Assembly (NCBI RefSeq): GCF_003334255.1
Contig: NZ_QOWU01000079.1
Length of the DNA: 14,611 bases
DNA from: Escherichia coli
GTDB lineage: Bacteria; Pseudomonadota; Gammaproteobacteria; Enterobacterales; Enterobacteriaceae
Reading direction: 5' to 3' (one strand)
The notes under the pieces are model-generated. The model saw only the letters and a list, made by a program, of their open reading frames with translations. It made no database searches and had not been told where the DNA came from. The position numbers and the translations under genes were made by a program. Positions 5,493-14,611 of the stretch are shown here, piece by piece (the stretch's first letter is position 1; every line of letters starts with the position of its first letter).

Positions 5493-6038
5493 ATGGCTAC
5501 GATCCCAACCCTCACTCAACCTGAAATTGCCATCGTTGATGGTCAGGCTGTTACTTCATCCCTGGCTGTTGCCAACTTCTTCTCCAAACGTCATGACGAT
5601 GTACTGAAAAAGATCCGCACGCTTGAATGTTCCGCATCATTCACTGCCCGCAATTTTTCGGTGAGTGATTACACCGATTGCACAGGCCGCAAACTACCTT
5701 GCTATCAAATAACCCGCGACGGCTTTGCGTTTCTTGCTATGGGTTTCACGGGTAAACGTGCTGCCCAGTTCAAAGAGGCATACATCAATGCCTTTAACCA
5801 GATGGAAAAACTGCTTTCAAAGCCATCCACGCTGAGCGATGCCGCAGATAACGCCAGCGTGCTTTACTCCCACCTGTCGGTAATCCACAAGGTCTGGCTG
5901 CAGCAGCTTTATCCCATGTTGGCAAAAGCCGAATCCCCGCTGGCTGTAAGTCTGTATGACCGCATCAACGACGCGGCGCTACTGGCCAGTCTCATAAATT
6001 TGTCGCTGAACCCTTCAGAGGTAAGGGGGCGCAAATGA
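5493..6038 (+). CDS. rha: Rha-family phage regulatory protein
   Basis: ATG 5493 has a strong SD (GGAGG 5480-5484, 8-nt spacing). MATIPTLTQPEIAIVDGQAVTSSLAVANFFSKRHDDVLKKIR...YQITRDGFAFLAMGFTGKRAAQFKEAYINAFNQME matches the Phage_pRha pattern I recall. The same frame stays open upstream to ATG 4890 (the 382-aa track ORF), which I treat as doubtful. Confidence 0.8.
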   Translation: MATIPTLTQPEIAIVDGQAVTSSLAVANFFSKRHDDVLKKIRTLECSASFTARNFSVSDYTDCTGRKLPCYQITRDGFAFLAMGFTGKRAAQFKEAYINAFNQMEKLLSKPSTLSDAADNASVLYSHLSVIHKVWLQQLYPMLAKAESPLAVSLYDRINDAALLASLINLSLNPSEVRGRK

Positions 6039-7535: not shown

Positions 7536-8026
7536 TCATGAGTCTGATGAACGATGTACAGAAATTCATTGAAGCCCATCCGGGGTGTACTTCAGGTGAC
7601 ATTGCGGATGCTTTTGCTGGTTACTCACGACAGTGCGTTCTGCAGTCAGCAAGCAAGTTACGTCAGAGTGGCCGTGTGGCTCACTGTTGTGAAGGGAAAA
7701 CACGCAGACATTTCCCACACCAGGCTGAGAGAGCGCAGGAGGCGGAACCGCAACCAGTTCTTGAAACCATACCTGTGCGCAATTTCTATGTCGGCACTAA
7801 CGATCCCCGGGTGATTTTGTGCCTGACCCGCCAGGCGGAAGAACTGGAGTCCAGGGGCTTATACCGTCGTGCTGCAACCGTGTGGATGGCGGCATTCCGT
7901 GAAAGCCACTCCCAGCCAGAACGAAACAATTTTCTGGCGCGTCGTGAGCGGTGCTTACGGAAAAGCAGAAAGCGCGCTGTAGCGGGTGATGAGTGGTATC
8001 TGTCAGGGAATTACGTGGGGGCTTAA
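7532..8026 (+). CDS. PerC-family (Pch-like) transcriptional regulator with an N-terminal wHTH-like extension
   Basis: AEELESRGLYRRAATVWMAAFRESHSQPERNNFLARRERCL matches the PerC motif (LE..G.YRRAA.RW ... RR..C) as I recall it. GTG 7532 forms a GTGA overlap with the upstream stop. ATG 7538 (AGGGGG-N6) is an alternative start. Confidence 0.6.
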   Translation: MIMSLMNDVQKFIEAHPGCTSGDIADAFAGYSRQCVLQSASKLRQSGRVAHCCEGKTRRHFPHQAERAQEAEPQPVLETIPVRNFYVGTNDPRVILCLTRQAEELESRGLYRRAATVWMAAFRESHSQPERNNFLARRERCLRKSRKRAVAGDEWYLSGNYVGA

Positions 8027-8679
8027 TGAGTAATAAATATTGCCAGGCGCTGGTGGAACTACGGAACAAACCAGCCCATGAACTGAAGGAAGTGGGCGAT
8101 CAGTGGCGCACGCCGGACAACATTTTCTGGGGAATTAACACCCTGTTTGGCCCGTTTGTTCTGGATCTGTTTACTGACGGTGATAACGCCAAATGTGCCG
8201 CGTATTACACGGCGGAAGACAACGCGCTGGCACATGACTGGTCAGAACGTCTTGCGGAGCTTAAAGGTGCTGCCTTTGGTAATCCCCCGTACAGCCGCGC
8301 CAGTCAGCATGAGGGACAATACATCACCGGCATGCGTTACATCATGAAGCATGCCAGTGCCATGCGTGATAAAGGCGGGCGCTATGTTTTCCTGATCAAA
8401 GCGGCCACCAGCGAAGTGTGGTGGCCGGAAGATGCAGATCATATTGCTTTTATTCGCGGGCGTATTGGTTTTGAACTGCCAGCCTGGTTTATCCCGAAAG
8501 ACGAAAAGCAGGTGCCAACAGGTGCTTTCTTCGCTGGTGCTATTGCTGTTTTCGACAAGACCTGGAAGGGAGCGGCAATCAGCTACATCGGGCGCGATGA
8601 ACTTGAGGCATGTGGTGAGGCATTTCTGGCGCAGGTTCGCCAGCAGGCGGAAAAACTGGTCAGGGAGATGGCGGCATGA
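8026..8679 (+). CDS. dam: phage DNA N6-adenine methyltransferase (Dam family)
   Basis: ATG 8026 (TAATG overlap with the upstream stop; GTGGGGG upstream) is preferred over the track start 7993. DQWRTPDNIF...GAAFGNPPYS contains the NPPY catalytic motif typical of the phage Dam family. Confidence 0.85.
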   Translation: MSNKYCQALVELRNKPAHELKEVGDQWRTPDNIFWGINTLFGPFVLDLFTDGDNAKCAAYYTAEDNALAHDWSERLAELKGAAFGNPPYSRASQHEGQYITGMRYIMKHASAMRDKGGRYVFLIKAATSEVWWPEDADHIAFIRGRIGFELPAWFIPKDEKQVPTGAFFAGAIAVFDKTWKGAAISYIGRDELEACGEAFLAQVRQQAEKLVREMAA

Positions 8680-9002
8680 CGACATTAACTCAATGCCAGC
8701 AGCAGGTGCTGGATATGCTGATTTCTTATCAGAAAGAACGTGGCTTCCCGCCAACCAATCAGGAGGTGGCAACCATGCTGGGATACCGTTCGGTGAATGC
8801 AGCGGTGGAGCATCTTCGCGCACTGGAGAAAAAAGGTGTCATCACGATAAAGCGTGGCGTGGCCCGGGGTATCACTCTTCATACCGCGGTGAAGGACGAC
8901 GACAGCGAGGCGGTCGGGATTATCCGCGCCCTGCTTGCCGGTGAGGCAAACGCCAGGCTGCGTGCAGCCCACTGGTTACATGAGAGGGGCCTGAAAGTAT
9001 GA
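8676..9002 (+). CDS. LexA N-terminal DNA-binding-domain protein lacking the S24 peptidase domain
   Basis: 108 aa. LTQCQQQVLDMLISYQKERGFPPTNQEVATMLGYRSVNAAVEHLRALEKKGVITIKRGVARGITL aligns by eye with E. coli LexA residues 4-68 ([65 protein letters not shown]). It has no Ala-Gly cleavage site and no Ser/Lys dyad domain. ATGA overlaps occur at both ends. Confidence 0.8.
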   Translation: MTTLTQCQQQVLDMLISYQKERGFPPTNQEVATMLGYRSVNAAVEHLRALEKKGVITIKRGVARGITLHTAVKDDDSEAVGIIRALLAGEANARLRAAHWLHERGLKV

Positions 9003-9394
9003 AGCTAATACTGCCTTTTCCGCCCAGCGTGAACACGTACTGGCGACACCCCAACAAAGGGGCGTTTGCTGGTAAGAGCCTGATAAGCGCGGCGGGGCGA
9101 AAATTCCAGAGCGCGGCGTGTGCAGCAATAGTTGAGCAGTTACGTCGTCTGCCGAAACCAACGTCGGCACCTGCTTCAGTGGAGATCGTGTTGTTTCCTC
9201 CGGATAACCGGATCCGCGATCTGGACAACTATAACAAGGCGCTGTTTGACGCCCTGACCCACGCGGGTGTGTGGGAAGACGACAGCCAGGTGAAAAGAAT
9301 GCTGGTGGAGTGGGGACCGGTTATCCCGGAAGGGAAGGTCGAGATCACTATCAGTAAGTACGAAAAAGCGAGTTGCAAATTAGCAACTCGGTAA
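8999..9394 (+). CDS. rusA: RusA Holliday-junction resolvase
   Basis: LPFPPSVNTYWRH...RIRDLDNYNKALFDALTHAGVWEDDSQV matches E. coli RusA (LPWPPSNNRYYRH...[28 protein letters not shown]). Confidence 0.9.
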   Translation: MKLILPFPPSVNTYWRHPNKGAFAGKSLISAAGRKFQSAACAAIVEQLRRLPKPTSAPASVEIVLFPPDNRIRDLDNYNKALFDALTHAGVWEDDSQVKRMLVEWGPVIPEGKVEITISKYEKASCKLATR

Positions 9395-9439
9395 CGGAAT
9401 TGAGCAACACCCTAAATTTGGGTATTACCTCGTTAAAGA

Positions 9440-9459
9440 TACTGTATTTATGAACAGTG
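9440..9459. promoter_or_regulatory. LexA (SOS) box upstream of the KilA-N gene
   Basis: TACTGTATTTATGAACAGTG has CTG-N10-CAG spacing. It matches 16 of 20 positions of the consensus TACTGTATATATATACAGTA. It lies in the 162-bp AT-rich gap after rusA. A possible promoter, TTGAGC (9400-9405), 17 bp, TATTAC (9423-9428), sits just upstream. Confidence 0.7.
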
Positions 9460-9556
9460 TATCCTTGATAACTATTAAAAATCGCAGTAAGTTCATCCTG
9501 CATCAACGAAAAGGGAGTGCAGTCCCGCTCGTGGATAAAAATTTGTGGAGAAACCA

Positions 9557-10372
9557 ATGAATCAGTTGCTTGTAATTGATGGCGTTTCTGTGCGCCAGTA
9601 CTTCGAATCTAACTACTGTCTTAACGACCTTCAGAAAGCTGCTCTTCTTGCCGCTGGTGAGAATCGCTCCTCCCGTTCGCTGGAAGTTCACGAGTTTATG
9701 CGTCGTCCTGAAACGAAGGCTCTTGTGGAATTATTGGAAGAAGAAACTACGGGAGATTCCCGTAGTATTCCTGTCATCACCATTCAGGGGCGCAATGGTG
9801 GGACGTATGTCTGTAAAGAGCTGGTCTATGCATATGCAATGTGGATCAGCCCGGCATTCAGCTTAAAAGTGATACGTACTTTTGATGCGCTTCATAATTC
9901 ATCACCAGAAGAAACCACATCCGACAAAATTAAATCCGGGGTCATTCTGCTTGAATCAGCAGCAAAGACTCTAAATCTGTCAAACTCCTCGAAACTTGGT
10001 GCATACCAGAAATTATCAAAGGTAGCTGGTCTTCCTGAACTTATGCCGATCTATGCCATTGATGCACCTGCTGATGCGCCAGATGGTTCAAGCCGCCCTA
10101 CGCTGTCGCTGAGTGCACTGCTGAAGCAGTATGGTATCCGCCTGACGGCTAATCAGGCATATCACCAGATGGCGAAGCTGGGGATCGTTGAACAACGCGA
10201 ACGATACAGCCGTACCGCGATTAACAACATCAAAAAATTCTGGTCGCTGACAGCGAAAGGCTGCATGTTCGGCAAGAACATCACCAGTCCTGCAAATCCG
10301 CGCGAGACGCAGCCGCATTTCTTCGAATCCCGATTCCCTGAGCTGTTAAAGCTGCTCGATACCGTTCATTGA
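9557..10372 (+). CDS. KilA-N domain protein (antirepressor-like)
   Basis: ATG 9557 (GGAG-N6) is preferred over GTG 9545. MNQLLVIDGVSVRQYFESNYCLNDLQKAA...EFMRRPETKALVELLE...VITIQGRNGGTYVCKELVYAYAMWISPAFSLKVIRTFD fits the KilA-N pattern I recall. Confidence 0.7.
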   Translation: MNQLLVIDGVSVRQYFESNYCLNDLQKAALLAAGENRSSRSLEVHEFMRRPETKALVELLEEETTGDSRSIPVITIQGRNGGTYVCKELVYAYAMWISPAFSLKVIRTFDALHNSSPEETTSDKIKSGVILLESAAKTLNLSNSSKLGAYQKLSKVAGLPELMPIYAIDAPADAPDGSSRPTLSLSALLKQYGIRLTANQAYHQMAKLGIVEQRERYSRTAINNIKKFWSLTAKGCMFGKNITSPANPRETQPHFFESRFPELLKLLDTVH

Positions 10373-10373
10373 G

Positions 10374-11369
10374 GTGACCGTGAGAGCACTACTGACCCCT
10401 GAAATCGCCCCGCGTATGGGGATCGTATTGTTCAGGCCAGGTTCAGAGCTGATGCCCCTGTTTATGCAGGGGCGTGTCCTGCTGGAGCCTGAGCCGGAAC
10501 GTTATTCATCTTTTGCCAGTGGTGCCGTTCCGGCATCATCACAACCGCTGGCGGATGATCCTGCCGTTCGGGCCGTGTTCCGCCATGAGGCGGTGATCCG
10601 TCGTGCTGGTGGCGTGGAATGCCTTGAGAGCTGGTTACTTCGTGAAAAGGGCTGTCAGTGGCCTCATTCCGACTGGCACAGCGAGAACATGACCACAATG
10701 CGGCACGCGCCAGGCGCAATCCGTCTGTGCTGGCACTGTGACAATCTTCTCCGTGACCAGTTCACGGAACGGCTGGAAGCAATGGCAACGGATAACTGTG
10801 CCCGCTGGGTGTTGTCTGTTGTGCGCCGTGATCTTGGTTTTGATGACAGTCACGTTGTGACAATGCCGGAACTGTGCTGGTGGCTGATTCGTAATGACCT
10901 GGCGGATGCTTTACCGGAAAGTGCAGCCCGTAAGGCCCTGAGATTACCGAAGCCTGTTTTGCCGTCTGTCACCCGGGAGAGTGACCTTGTACCTTCGGTT
11001 ACTGCCACCAGTATTATCCGGGATAAAGCGAAAAAGGTGCTGGCGCTGAAAGTGGATCCGGAGTCGCCGGAGTCTTTTATGTTACGCCCCAAACGTCGTC
11101 GCTGGGTTAATGAAAAGTACACTCGCTGGGTTAAGACGCAGCCGTGTGCATGTTGTGGAAAGCCAGCTGATGATCCGCATCATCTGATTGGTCACGGCCA
11201 GGGTGGTATGGGGACAAAAGCGCATGATCTCTTTGTGTTGCCTTTGTGCAGAAAACACCATGACGAACTGCATGTGGATACCGTGGCATTTGAAGAGAAG
11301 TATGGTTCCCAACTGGAGCTGATATTTCGTTTTATCGATCGCGCACTGGCGATTGGTGTGCTGTCCTGA
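10374..11369 (+). CDS. DUF968 protein (YdfU family) with a C-terminal Ref-like HNH motif
   Basis: The C-terminus reads CACCGKPADDPHHLIGHGQGGMGTKAHDLFVLPLCRKHHDELH, a Cys/His HNH-type motif I associate with DUF968 and P1 Ref. The start is uncertain (GTG 10374 or GTG 10380 after GAGG). The gene begins 1 nt after the KilA-N stop. Confidence 0.7.
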   Translation: MTVRALLTPEIAPRMGIVLFRPGSELMPLFMQGRVLLEPEPERYSSFASGAVPASSQPLADDPAVRAVFRHEAVIRRAGGVECLESWLLREKGCQWPHSDWHSENMTTMRHAPGAIRLCWHCDNLLRDQFTERLEAMATDNCARWVLSVVRRDLGFDDSHVVTMPELCWWLIRNDLADALPESAARKALRLPKPVLPSVTRESDLVPSVTATSIIRDKAKKVLALKVDPESPESFMLRPKRRRWVNEKYTRWVKTQPCACCGKPADDPHHLIGHGQGGMGTKAHDLFVLPLCRKHHDELHVDTVAFEEKYGSQLELIFRFIDRALAIGVLS

Positions 11370-11386
11370 TTTTGTGGAGAAAGTTG

Positions 11387-11779
11387 ATGCGTGATATTCA
11401 GATGGTTCTTGAACGCTGGGGGGCATGGGCGGCAAGTGGTAACACCGGGGTGGACTATTCTCCGATAGCTGCTGGATTTAAAGGCCTTTTACCATCCACC
11501 GCTAAACCTCGCCCGGCCTGCAGCGATGATGACGGCCTTATCATCGAAAACTGCCTTACGCGCCTGAAGAAGAAAAAACCGGACGAGTATTCGCTGCTGG
11601 TAGCTCATTATCTGCTGCGCATATCAAAAAGGCAGATTGCCAGAACAAGAAAGAAGAGCGAAAAGGCAATACGAATTGAGATGCAGATTGCTGAAGGATT
11701 TATTGACGGATGTCTGTCGATGCTGGGTGTAAGGCTGGAGATGGACGACTGGCTGCCCAAAAAAGTAAAAAATGATTAG
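11387..11779 (+). CDS. Q: late-gene antiterminator Q (QuuD-like)
   Basis: ATG 11387 (GGAGA-N6) is preferred over TTG 11372. MRDIQMVLERWGAWA...IAAGFKGLLPS...CSDDDGLII is close to E. coli DLP12 QuuD as I recall it. Confidence 0.85.
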   Translation: MRDIQMVLERWGAWAASGNTGVDYSPIAAGFKGLLPSTAKPRPACSDDDGLIIENCLTRLKKKKPDEYSLLVAHYLLRISKRQIARTRKKSEKAIRIEMQIAEGFIDGCLSMLGVRLEMDDWLPKKVKND

Positions 11780-11839
11780 CGCGGTCCGCAAAAAGTATGT
11801 CAGTATGTTAAGAGTGGTTACTACGCCACACAACTTAAA

Positions 11840-11862
11840 CCCGCCGCCTGGCGGGTTTTTTA
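11840..11862 (+). terminator. intrinsic terminator about 60 nt after Q
   Basis: CCCGCC-GCCT-GGCGGG followed by TTTTTTAT. Confidence 0.75.
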
Positions 11863-11983
11863 TGACTGAAATCGCATCAGTACAGTAAACGTGCTGGTGG
11901 TGGTGAATACCGGTCTTTCAGCTTGCTGGCTTTTTCGACAAGAGTTATTGGTGTGTCACGTTAACCGGAAAAGGGAAAAAGAC

Positions 11984-12181
11984 ATGCTAAAACAGCAGGA
12001 TATGACAGAAACCGCCAGAGTGGTGTTTAATGAATTAAGTGCCACCGAACCGGCGACAGTCGGGGAGATTGCGCAGAATACTTACCTTTCACGCGAACGC
12101 TGCCAGTTAATACTGACCCAGCTGGTTATGGCGGGTCTGGCAGACTATCAGTTCGGTTGTTACAGACGCCTTCCGCAGTGA
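11984..12181 (+). CDS. small hypothetical protein (65 aa), possibly winged-helix; moron-like unit
   Basis: ATG 11984 (AAGGGAAAAAGACATG) is preferred over the track start 11891. The translation is MLKQQDMTETARVVFNELSATEPATVGEIAQNTYLSRERCQLILTQLVMAGLADYQF. The gene is flanked by terminators at 11840 and 12168. Confidence 0.5.
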   Translation: MLKQQDMTETARVVFNELSATEPATVGEIAQNTYLSRERCQLILTQLVMAGLADYQFGCYRRLPQ

Positions 12182-12192
12182 AGGCTTTTTTA
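12168..12192 (+). terminator. intrinsic terminator overlapping the small-ORF stop
   Basis: GCCTTC-CGCAGT-GAAGGC followed by TTTTTTAT. Confidence 0.7.
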
Positions 12193-12510
12193 TTTGTGGT
12201 AAATGGGCGGCTGGTGGGTGTGGTGGTTGTTGCTTTCCCGTTGCTGAAAAAGAAAGCATCAGGCGATTAGCAGGGTATCAGTTACCCGTTGAAATTTTTA
12301 AATACCTCACAATTCAGGCGGTTGACTGTTGTCTGGTTTGCGGGGAGTTTGTTAAAAGAAACTGGCATGGTGAATCCCCCTGTGCGGAGGGGCAATCAGC
12401 AACTGGTGTTTTGTCACCGACCCTTATCCTTTCTGTGCGGGTTCAGGTGCTGATACTGAACTCACCGGGAGGCACCCGGCACCATGCAATGGCACATAGC
12501 GCCACTCTCC

Positions 12511-12537
12511 AGCCCCTCTCCGGAGGGGCTTTCTTAT
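12511..12537 (+). terminator. intrinsic terminator (tR'-like candidate)
   Basis: AGCCCCTC-TCCG-GAGGGGCT followed by TTCTTAT. Confidence 0.65.
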
Positions 12538-12541
12538 GGAC

Positions 12542-12570
12542 AAAAAAAGCCCGCGCTGGGAGACGCGGGC
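12542..12570 (-). terminator. minus-strand intrinsic terminator, convergent with the previous one
   Basis: The minus strand reads GCCCGCG-TCTCCCAG-CGCGGGC followed by TTTTTTT. Confidence 0.7.
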
Positions 12571-12610
12571 GGCAAGGAATAAACAACAAAACGTGAAGTA
12601 ATATTTCAGC
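12542..12610 (-). ncRNA. candidate small RNA of about 70 nt (promoter 12646-12617, terminator 12570-12542)
   Basis: The minus strand carries TTGCGC (12646-12641), an 18-bp spacer and TATTAT (12622-12617). The predicted RNA is GCUGAAAUAUUACUUCACGUUUUGUUGUUUAUUCCUUGCC followed by a GC hairpin and U7. It contains no ORF. Confidence 0.35.
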
Positions 12611-12764
12611 TGGCGAATAATATCCGACAGTAATCACTCTGCGCAATAGCGCGGCCTTTTTCGTATTGCGGGCTGTAGTCTTCCTCCTGCCATTGTCCTG
12701 TAACTTCCGGACTTCAGCCCGTTCCCTCATCTGACTCACAACATTATCCCGACCGGGAGGATTC

Positions 12765-14611
12765 ATGACATTTAAACACTATGACGTGGTCAGGGCGGCG
12801 TCGCCGTCAGACCTTGCGGAGCGACTGACACAAAAACTGAAGGAGGGGTGGCAGCCATTTGGCAGCCCTGTGGCCATCACGCCTTATACCCTGATGCAGG
12901 CCATTGCGGCGGAAGGTGATGTCACCACACCGGTGGTGGTGCAACCGTCGGGTGATGGTGGCGCTGTTATCAGCACCACCAGCGAACCGGAATATTACTT
13001 TGTCATTGCGCTGGCCGGGCAGTCCAACTCGATGTCTTTTGGCGAGGGGCTGCCGCTGCCGGATACGTATGATCGTCCTGACCCGCGTATTAAGCAACTG
13101 GCGCGTCGCAGCACGGTGACACCGGGCGGTGCGGCCTGTGCATATAACGACATTATTCCTGCAGACCATTGTCTGCATGATGTGCAGGACGTGAGTAATC
13201 TGAATCACCCGAAAGCAGACCTCAATAAAGGGCAGTATGGCTGTGTGGGGCATGCCCTGCATGTGGCCAAAAAACTGCTGCCGTTTATGCCTGCCCGTGC
13301 GGGGATCCTTCTTGTCCCGTGTGGACGTGGCGATTCGGGATTTACTGCGGGAGCAGAGGGCGCGTTTAATGAGGCGTCGGGTGCGACAGCGGGCTCTTCC
13401 CTGTGGGGGGTGGATAAACCGTTGTATCGTGACCTGGTCAGCAGAACGCGTGCAGCCCTGAAGAAAAACCCGAAAAACGTGCTGTTGTCGGTGATCTGGA
13501 TGCAGGGGGAAAAAGATGTCAGTTCGGGGAGACATGCAGAGCACAATGCACTTTTTCTTGCCATGGTAAATAAATACCGTGCAGACCTGGCAGATATTGC
13601 AGACCAGTGTATTGGCGGGACAACGTCCGGCGTCCCGTGGATTTGCGGTGACACCACGTACGACTGGAAGGCGAAGTATGCAGTGCAGTATGAGGCGGTT
13701 TACGGAGGCTATAAAGGCAAGGCGGCGCAGAATATTCACTTTGTGCCGTTGATGACGGATGAGCATGGTGCGAATGTGCCGACAAACGAGCCGTCAGAAG
13801 ATCCGGACATTATCACGGCGGGATACTATGGTGCCGCGTCACGCAGTAATGGTAACTGGACGACAGCCGATCGTAAAACGCACTTCAGCTCCTGGGCGCG
13901 AAGAGGCATTGTTTCAGATCGGCTGGCAGGAGAGATACTGGTGCGAGCCGGGCGTTTGCTGCCGTTCCTGAGCGGGCAGTCTGCACCGCTGGCGACCACG
14001 CCAGCCTCCACGGGGGATGCACAGTCTGGCTCTGCGGGTCCGACGCAACAGCAGGGTGCAGGTACTTCTGCAGGCGGTCATACTGAAGCCGTAACAAGAA
14101 TGGTGGCCGGATATGATGCGAACAGTGGCAGTGGTGTATGGACAGAGCAGCAGTGGAATGCGTCCGGTGGTAAAGGCACTGTGACGGATGACAGTGGCAG
14201 GAAGGCGCTGCGACTGGAAAAACAGCCGGGTAAACTGACCTCCTGGAAGATGTTCCGTACTGTTGCGGTGGAGGAGGCAAAAAATCTTCTCAGTAAGGGA
14301 GGTGAAATTGCCGTGCGGTTTAAGATCCCGGAGGGTGTCGAACTGGTTAACGGTCAGTTTGTCTTTGGTCTGTACTGGCCGGTGTCGCAGTGGGCGTCAG
14401 GCGCGACAGCAAACAGCATGCTGGCGTCCTTCTTCCTTCAGACGGATGCATCAAATCTGAATCTGATGTACCACAAGGGGGAGTCGAATGCGCAACTGGG
14501 CACATTTGGGGCATTTGACCATAACTGGCATACAGTTGTTTTCCGCTTTGCGGGAAATAACAGCGAAAGAGTCGTTCCGGTGATTGATGGTACAGAGCAG
14601 ACGGCGTTTGA
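12765..14611 (+). CDS. nanS-p: NanS-p-type prophage sialate O-acetylesterase (DUF1737 N-terminal domain plus SASA/SGNH esterase), 5' 615 codons; 3' end beyond the window
   Basis: Absent from the ORF track because it is open-ended. I translated 12765 to 14611 codon by codon and found no stop. GGGAGG lies at 12755-12760. The N-terminus is MTFKHYDVVRAASPSDLAERLTQKLKEGWQPFGSPVAI, which looks like DUF1737. YYFVIALAGQSNSMSFGEG carries the GQSN esterase serine motif. Its position between Q and the lysis genes is the same as nanS-p in EHEC lambdoid prophages. Confidence 0.85.
   Translation, partial: MTFKHYDVVRAASPSDLAERLTQKLKEGWQPFGSPVAITPYTLMQAIAAEGDVTTPVVVQPSGDGGAVISTTSEPEYYFVIALAGQSNSMSFGEGLPLPDTYDRPDPRIKQLARRSTVTPGGAACAYNDIIPADHCLHDVQDVSNLNHPKADLNKGQYGCVGHALHVAKKLLPFMPARAGILLVPCGRGDSGFTAGAEGAFNEASGATAGSSLWGVDKPLYRDLVSRTRAALKKNPKNVLLSVIWMQGEKDVSSGRHAEHNALFLAMVNKYRADLADIADQCIGGTTSGVPWICGDTTYDWKAKYAVQYEAVYGGYKGKAAQNIHFVPLMTDEHGANVPTNEPSEDPDIITAGYYGAASRSNGNWTTADRKTHFSSWARRGIVSDRLAGEILVRAGRLLPFLSGQSAPLATTPASTGDAQSGSAGPTQQQGAGTSAGGHTEAVTRMVAGYDANSGSGVWTEQQWNASGGKGTVTDDSGRKALRLEKQPGKLTSWKMFRTVAVEEAKNLLSKGGEIAVRFKIPEGVELVNGQFVFGLYWPVSQWASGATANSMLASFFLQTDASNLNLMYHKGESNAQLGTFGAFDHNWHTVVFRFAGNNSERVVPVIDGTEQTAF

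Follow-up and report, generated by a model that had tools for sequence, protein, structure and literature searches.

A predicted LexA operator heading a kilA-N leader in the nin region of an Escherichia coli lambdoid prophage

We analysed a 14,611-nt stretch of Escherichia coli DNA (RefSeq assembly GCF_003334255.1, contig NZ_QOWU01000079.1; hereafter, the window) from a lambdoid prophage, and found in the 162-nt gap ahead of kilA-N a 20-mer, TACTGTATTTATGAACAGTG at 9440..9459, that is predicted to be a high-quality, non-random LexA (SOS) box. In the explanation we favour, host LexA would occupy this operator in the lysogen and shut a sigma-70 promoter in the gap, and cleavage of LexA after DNA damage would start transcription from the gap independently of PR and cI. 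In the nin region, the operator would stand at the head of the leader that goes with one specific kilA-N allele, the resulting kilA-N mRNA would carry a conserved (G/U)UGCAG stem-loop, and part of the transcript would probably run through DUF968 into the antiterminator gene Q and end at the terminator at 11840. We put the probability that the gap contains a rightward promoter repressed by host LexA, with SOS induction giving a PR-independent kilA-N mRNA, at about 0.55. A biologically meaningful bypass to Q is proposed tentatively, as a possibility that falls short of an even chance.

The LexA box and its setting

The 20-mer, which was identified by sequence reading, mismatch search and scoring and has no strand of its own, has the form CTGT-N8-ACAG (CTG-N10-CAG) and agrees with the consensus TACTGTATATATATACAGTA at 16 of 20 positions. 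Both the perfect spacing and the 16 matches had been stated in a sequence-only reading of this DNA that preceded our analysis, and both were borne out. A consensus search allowing up to 3 mismatches does not return 9440-9459, consistent with its 4 mismatches. In the window, CTGT-N8-ACAG occurs 4 times against 0.14 expected. We scored every 20-mer by a Lewis-type heterology index (HI), in which a low value is a good match, as the sequence-only reading had proposed. The HI of the box was about 5.4, which is in the range of recA and sulA when computed, as here, with a matrix built from literature sites. Only the 20-mer at 3757 (3.35) ranked above it, and the best remaining 20-mer of the window had an HI of 14.35. 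Furthermore, none of 100 window shuffles attained 5.4 (best 7.6, median 13.9). As a positive control, the scorer picked the dinI LexA box of Gifsy-1, which has been validated experimentally (PMC3121763), as the sole strong site (HI 4.0) in 48.5 kb. The whole genomes of phages SfIV and PhiR49_1 contain exactly 1 strong site each, namely the homologue of the 9440-9459 box. The box therefore resembles an E. coli-type LexA operator in its palindrome, its AT-rich centre and its low HI. Note that a full-text literature search with both strong box sequences of the window found no paper, and that a search linking LexA to KilA-N, DUF968 or Shiga toxin/Q found nothing specific.

The gap that holds the box (9395-9556) has a GC content of 0.39, compared with 0.50 for the window, and contains the lowest-GC 100-mer of the operon. 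It is the sole intergenic gap from cro to Q, the other junctions being overlaps, in agreement with the earlier description of the box as lying in the only sizeable AT-rich gap of the rightward operon. The box lies in the nin region, outside the immunity region, 5.4 kb rightward of cI/cro and about 1.9 kb from Q. Downstream of it lie kilA-N (9557..10372, plus strand; 271 aa from its ATG, with a Shine-Dalgarno (SD) sequence GGAG at 9547-9550), the DUF968/HNH (His-Me finger) gene (10374..11369, plus; GTG start at 10374 or 10380) and Q (11387..11779, plus; PF06530, E 3e-52, PHROG 79). These three genes abut or nearly do so, being 1-17 nt apart with an SD each; the kilA-N stop at 10372, the DUF968 stop at 11369 and the Q ATG at 11387 are as first described. 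The first canonical intrinsic terminator past the box, a tR'-like site at 11840..11861 (plus; CCCGCC-GCCT-GGCGGG-TTTTTT), stands 61 nt past the Q stop with the late region beyond it, a setting that together with the family profile match identifies Q. This terminator was found by sequence reading and folding and was missed by the automated scan, we guess because its stem was stretched into the T-run. From 9395 to 11840, and hence also between kilA-N and Q, where the sequence-only reading had reported none, terminator scan, sequence reading and folding revealed no canonical plus-strand terminator. Hairpin and T-rich sites inside DUF968 are weak, loose and at chance frequency, and none is canonical. 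With adjoining genes and no intrinsic terminator between them, read-through into Q would be plausible.

Conservation of the box and of the kilA-N leader

Of 5426 complete E. coli genomes, 186 carry the box-bearing leader, every time between rusA and kilA-N, and in 144 of these 186 it is at least 99% identical. Among sequenced phages, it was found only in SfIV, the near-identical VIT_AJPSC, PhiR49_1 and the _star record of the latter. The box is the same or improved in SfIV, PhiR49_1 and the E. coli variants: in five aligned leaders, all substitutions fall outside CTGT-N8-ACAG, and one variant with the last G changed to A matches better. It is identical in all box-bearing IMG/VR loci, and across some 70 IMG/VR and metagenome loci that carry the box the core does not vary. 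The leader is linked to one allele of the KilA-N N-terminus (MNQLLVIDGVSV...). With the other common kilA-N allele, carried by Stx2a_WGPS2, SfII, cdtI and many Stx2 phages, there is no gap and no box, and rusA abuts kilA-N.

We also collected diverged KilA-N homologues from viral, genomic and metagenomic collections, and compared the 180 nt 5' of the ATG with 2000 dinucleotide shuffles. In leaders that cannot otherwise be aligned, LexA-like boxes weaker than the one at 9440-9459 recurred between −92 and −185 relative to the kilA-N ATG, each with p ≤0.003. Specifically, these motifs were found in loci L147 (HI 7.9 at −116, TGCTGGATAAAAACACAGGT), L164 (HI 9.6 at −137, where rusA is not upstream), L096 of Serratia (HI 10.4 at −92), L154 (HI 10.8 at −128), L197 (HI 10.8 at −185), L055 (HI 11.5 at −115) and L095 of Rahnella (HI 13.8 at −92). 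Because the motif recurs before kilA-N while the upstream context changes, the operator would serve the rightward kilA-N unit and not rusA, and we regard this recurrence as the best evidence for such a role. More distant KilA-N homologues (Chromobacterium, Pantoea, Janthinobacterium and others) had no boxes; their context differs, so that they are uninformative. The order Dam-(LexA-like)-RusA-KilA-N-DUF968-Q represents an old lambdoid module and is retained in Serratia and Rahnella prophages.

The leader also contains a conserved stem-loop, GGGA-GUGCAG-UCCC, at 9513..9526 (plus), 31 nt 5' of the kilA-N ATG. A (G/U)UGCAG loop on a stem of 4-7 bp occurs about 20-60 nt before the kilA-N ATG in 15 of 16 leaders, with both kilA-N alleles and whether or not a box is present. 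Besides the window, it was seen in L002 (approximately 3073-3088), L055, L056, L006, L095, L096, L146, L147, L149, L154, L164, L197 and L068. Given that the stems comprise at least 7 different, fully complementary sequences, we take the stem-loop to be a covarying RNA element; in the L055 leader, the stem includes a G-U pair that forms only on the plus strand. Rfam gave no match in the gap, either with the whole window at the gathering threshold or with 9250-9650 at E ≤10. A 36-codon upstream open reading frame at 9450-9560 (plus), whose ATG lies within the box and whose TGA overlaps the kilA-N ATG (ATGA), was rejected as probably non-functional because it has no SD, its frame is changed by an 11-nt deletion variant and it is absent from diverged leaders.

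Promoters, ligands and outputs

Promoter candidates were ranked with a sigma-70 position weight matrix over 145,760 positions, and a consensus rule was applied in a separate scan. Three rightward and two leftward promoter-like sites, none of them decisive, have hexamers that flank and overlap the box. The rightward promoter named in the sequence-only reading, TTGAGC-17-TATTAC (9400..9428, plus; hexamers 9400-9405 and 9423-9428), has its hexamers in place and would put the box at about +5 to +24; however, it is a weak match (6.9 bits, rank 107) whose −10 has no final T and so fails the consensus rule, and the other rightward candidates compete with it. The second, TTGGGT-16-TACTGT (9418..9445, plus; 6.2 bits), takes the left arm of the box as its −10, and in Serratia L096 and Rahnella L095, as we read their leaders, a comparable TAC(G)(T/G)T lies at the left arm of the box-like motif. 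The third, TTGATA-17-TAAGTT (9465..9493, plus; 11.5 bits), is the best rightward candidate (rank 5 of 145,760) and would start transcription at about 9500, which would put the box at about −60 to −41. In four diverged leaders aligned here, the T, A and final T of its TAnnnT (9488-9493) are the sole invariant bases thereabouts.

Several points weigh against repression of a rightward promoter by LexA. The best-scoring promoter has the box upstream of its −35, an unusual place for repression, and by the consensus rule no promoter in the gap passes. Absolute HI values are approximate, since the matrix was built from about 29 E. coli LexA sites taken from the literature. The closest relatives (L006, L056 and the Stx2a_WGPS2 type) are without the box, and the related leaders that lack it number six (L006, L056, L146, L149, L100 and L151); given these relatives and the allele without a gap, control through the box would be lineage-specific and dispensable. 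Unlike in Gifsy, no plus-strand terminator lies upstream of the box to block read-through from PR. Finally, there is no evident need for an antirepressor, because the phage has a cI of the S24 type.

The last point bears on the nature of the gene products. By Pfam, cI (3293-3985, minus strand) has a helix-turn-helix (HTH) and a Peptidase_S24 domain (E 5.9e-19), the latter as in the sequence-only reading, and so differs from the uncleavable repressors that go with antirepressor modules; the cI of SfIV is annotated as 'UmuD-like protein' and that of PhiR49_1 just as 'repressor protein cI'. The same reading had placed kilA-N among antirepressor-type genes, which we could not uphold. The protein combines an N-terminal KilA-N domain with a C-terminal domain common to the box-less allele. 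By Pfam, KilA-N is the only domain, with no ANT/KilAC, Tum or DinI domain even at E ≤10, and no homology to known antirepressors was seen. The protein belongs to PHROG 129, 'transcriptional regulator', and its C-terminal half is similar to proteins that are antirepressor or Rha-like by annotation only, so that the label 'antirepressor' is a guess. The DUF968 protein (PF06147, E 5.9e-80; HNHc_6, E 7e-6; PHROG 96, 'HNH endonuclease') had been called Ref-like, which holds at the level of the HNH superfamily and fails at that of the Ref family: the match to PF16786 (RecA_dep_nuc) had an E of 0.28 and 11.8 bits against a cut-off of 26.9, a phmmer search of PDB gave no match to Ref (3PLW), and the His-Me finger classification assigns DUF968, along with YbcO/DUF1364, to group 7, but Ref to groups 26 and 31 (PMC5714182).

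A candidate ligand other than host LexA is encoded about 440 nt upstream of the box. This gene (8676..9002, plus) specifies a 108-aa LexA paralogue with the DNA-binding domain only, i.e. a LexA winged HTH without the S24 cleavage domain, as in GIL01 gp6. Residues 1-65 match the full-length LexA_DNA_bind domain (E 2.9e-19), the best PDB match is the N-terminal domain (NTD) of E. coli LexA (1LEA, 6e-16), and TIGR00498 matches at positions 1-91 only, under its cut-off. The recognition helix is near-identical to that of LexA (RSvNAAvEHLrAL vs RSpNAAeEHLkAL), and the protein is presumably uncleavable because it has no S24 domain. It could be the main ligand of the box, as repressor or activator, in the manner of GIL01 gp6 at P3 (PMC6182141). 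However, the paralogue is widespread in the nin module independently of the boxes of kilA-N and cI: a box is present and the paralogue missing from the available upstream DNA in L147, L164, L096 and L197, the paralogue occurs without a box in L006, L056 and L002, and ST64B has a box inside cI and no paralogue. As an obligate partner of the box it was therefore rejected on co-occurrence. We consider the paralogue as main ligand very improbable; host LexA is the likelier ligand, because the paralogue tracks neither box.

The box inside cI is the top-ranked site of the window, TACTGTTTTTACATACAGTA at 3757-3776 (HI about 3.4), which spans the linker codons T-V-C-K-N-S. There, CTG(T/G)-N8-ACAG is kept in the cI homologues of SfII, ST64B, Klebsiella phage Kp4872-1 and Flotzy (69-93% nucleotide identity) while the flanks diverge, and the ST64B genome contains no other strong box. 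The cI sense strand also has a conserved TTTACC-17-TACTGT (−35 at 3799-3794, −10 at 3776-3771). This box may possibly serve a LexA-gated promoter, or act as a roadblock, within cI. Strong LexA boxes with HI of 3.9-4.8 were also noted in L002 (7448-7467, TACTGTAAAAATATCCAGTT), L004 (6861-6880, TACTGTAAAAATAAACAGTG), L065 (TACTGTAAATATAAACAGTG) and L093 (TACTGTAAAAATAAACAGTG). Those of L002 and L004, both Stx-phage-like prophages, are at the very start of a DNA-methyltransferase gene downstream of Q, and those of L065 and L093 lie about 3.2-3.6 kb past the kilA-N start.

If LexA does gate kilA-N, the output might still be limited to kilA-N by the leader hairpin or Rho, with Q left dependent on PR and no bypass. 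That the stem-loop is conserved in box-bearing and box-less leaders alike suggests post-transcriptional control of kilA-N in particular; the weak hairpin and T-rich sites inside DUF968 fit such a limit; and the selected unit looks like the kilA-N leader and not Q, because the Q type downstream of the same module is swapped freely between PF06530 and PF03589. On the other hand, kilA-N, DUF968 and Q lie within 1-17 nt of each other with their own SDs, the internal hairpins are not canonical terminators, and the synteny of the three genes is kept from E. coli to Serratia and Rahnella. We judge this restricted output unlikely, though it comes ahead of the other rivals.

It is rather unlikely that the box controls a leftward promoter, instead of or in addition to the rightward one, and so gives an SOS-induced oop-like small RNA of about 70-110 nt. 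Such an RNA would start at about 9434 or 9471, and end at a hairpin with U5 at 9390-9362, and its antisense targets would be the 3' terminal part of rusA and the junction between rusA and kilA-N on the PR transcript. The structured segment in question (9362..9434, minus) comprises a 10-bp hairpin at 9429-9403 and, at 9390-9369, one of 8 bp that leads into U5. The latter lies in the last rusA codons and is terminator-like on the minus strand only, so that, as at oop, an antisense intrinsic terminator overlaps the 3' end of the upstream gene. The 73-nt segment folds at −26.3 kcal/mol (z −5.7) as minus-strand and −20.7 (z −3.4) as plus-strand RNA. Hairpin 9429-9403 contains G-U pairs and is stable only as minus-strand RNA (−13.4 vs −7.2 kcal/mol), and in AZ187, by our own reading of the alignment, 2 of 3 substitutions in it pair only as G-U on the minus strand. 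The LexA site at oop/pO offers an analogue (PMC5869508). However, the two minus-strand promoter candidates, TTGATG-17-GATTTT (rank 16) and TTATCA-19-TACAGT with its −10 within the box, are poor, having a GATTTT −10 or a 19-nt spacer. In a phage search, the hairpin cassette was found only in the E. coli/Shigella leader, and it is absent from L147 and L164, whose box nevertheless stands just as far from kilA-N. The A-run behind the U-tail encodes conserved rusA codons (Y-E-K) that box-less phages share, and the segment had no Rfam match at E ≤10.

Least probable of all, in our estimate, is that the box is a decaying or neutral relic without regulatory effect. It is lost in L006 and L056 and degraded in L055 and L095, and the phage already responds to SOS through its S24 cI. 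Against this stand a quality on par with strong chromosomal operators, the invariance of the core over the loci and aligned leaders described above, with a variant that improves the match, and the independent recurrence of boxes in unrelated leaders. An elaboration that joins host LexA and the paralogue in a two-stage circuit seems improbable. LexA cleavage would open the boxes of kilA-N and cI and give a cI-independent, SOS-only pulse of KilA-N, HNH protein and Q that would suffice to turn on PR' together with the late and lysis genes; the uncleavable paralogue, made from PR, would later re-occupy SOS boxes in phage and host DNA.

Of the remaining features, the gene for the 382-aa Ash/Rha protein (4890-6038) and that for Dam (7993-8679) were assigned with Pfam and PHROGs; rusA occupies 8999..9394 (plus), with its last 8 codons falling in the 9369-9390 hairpin. 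Rfam matches to isrK and C4 antisense RNA at 5250-5326 and 5351-5438 (plus) fall inside the Ash/Rha reading frame and overlap the region matching Phage_ASH. Downstream of Q, Rfam gave STnc100 at 12336-12541 (plus). The sequence-only reading had named nanS-p among the genes that Q could switch on, and we compared 11456-14611 with L203, the stx-less, Stx-phage-like prophage of E. coli O104:H4 C227-11. The window is about 93-96% identical to L203 up to mid-Q and then diverges; past Q only 12295-12901 matches, around the start of the SASA esterase (nanS-p) gene, and the complete gene is not there.

Significance and comparison with known systems

If LexA gates a promoter upstream of Q, the late genes would have an input that bypasses cI and covers lysis and any cargo after Q, as in Stx-phage-like relatives. 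This would be relevant to the triggering of lysis or cargo release by sub-inducing DNA damage or antibiotics, and cross-talk between prophages could be affected if KilA-N acts in trans. The two-stage circuit, if true, would mean that induction and infection differ in their timing programme, and that LexA acts directly on toxin release in relatives with toxin genes after Q. The LexA box, the leader hairpin and the LexA paralogue can be put to the test in SfIV and PhiR49_1, two phages that have been isolated and are inducible. Note that the gain would be incremental unless the Q bypass is demonstrated, because SOS-controlled prophage modules are already established.

Among such modules, a direct LexA route to late or lysis functions has already been claimed for the prophage endolysins Epel1/2 of extraintestinal pathogenic E. 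coli, which are LexA-repressed and would link SOS to lysis without the phage repressor (PMC9621596). There the boxes are in the endolysin promoter regions, whereas the route proposed here would pass through Q and its action at PR', and so be indirect. Gp6 of GIL01, a truncated homologue of LexA, serves as activator of the late promoter P3 (PMC6182141), and the candidate likeness is a phage protein with only the LexA DNA-binding domain alongside LexA boxes in phage promoters. However, GIL01 is a Gram-positive tectivirus without cI whose gp6 site has diverged, whereas here the LexA-like helix is kept and there is no co-variation with the box. At lambda oop, the pO promoter region has a LexA site (PMC5869508, citing Lewis et al. 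1994); the candidate arrangement here is similar in that a LexA box stands beside a short leftward unit whose terminator overlaps the 3' end of the upstream rightward gene. It differs in lying at rusA/kilA-N and not at cII/O, in having no sequence or Rfam similarity to oop, and in that the cassette occurs in one lineage.

Tum (p95) of coliphage 186 and AntC of N15 are LexA-controlled antirepressors (cited in PMC3121763), and resemble the predicted arrangement here in that a LexA operator heads a regulatory gene outside the immunity region. KilA-N, however, has no sequence or domain relation to Tum or DinI by Pfam, and the phage needs no antirepressor for its own induction. The closest known system is the LexA-controlled dinI-gfoA(gftA/gfhA)-irsA operon of Gifsy-1/-2/-3 (Lemire et al. 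2011, PMC3121763). The transcription start site of an 'antQ operon' in Gifsy-1 lies 1.6 kb upstream of antQ (PMC4825925). The Gifsy cargo is DinI and a small antirepressor, compared with KilA-N and DUF968 here; the Gifsy repressors are not cleaved, whereas the cI of the window has an S24 domain; and in Gifsy two plus-strand terminators come before the box, which overlaps the −10, whereas here none precedes the box and there are three promoter candidates. In both cases, a lambdoid prophage has one strong LexA box in its nin region, between the replication genes and Q, from which a small block of co-oriented genes follows, and the distance from box to Q is about 2.2 kb in Gifsy-1 and about 1.9 kb here.

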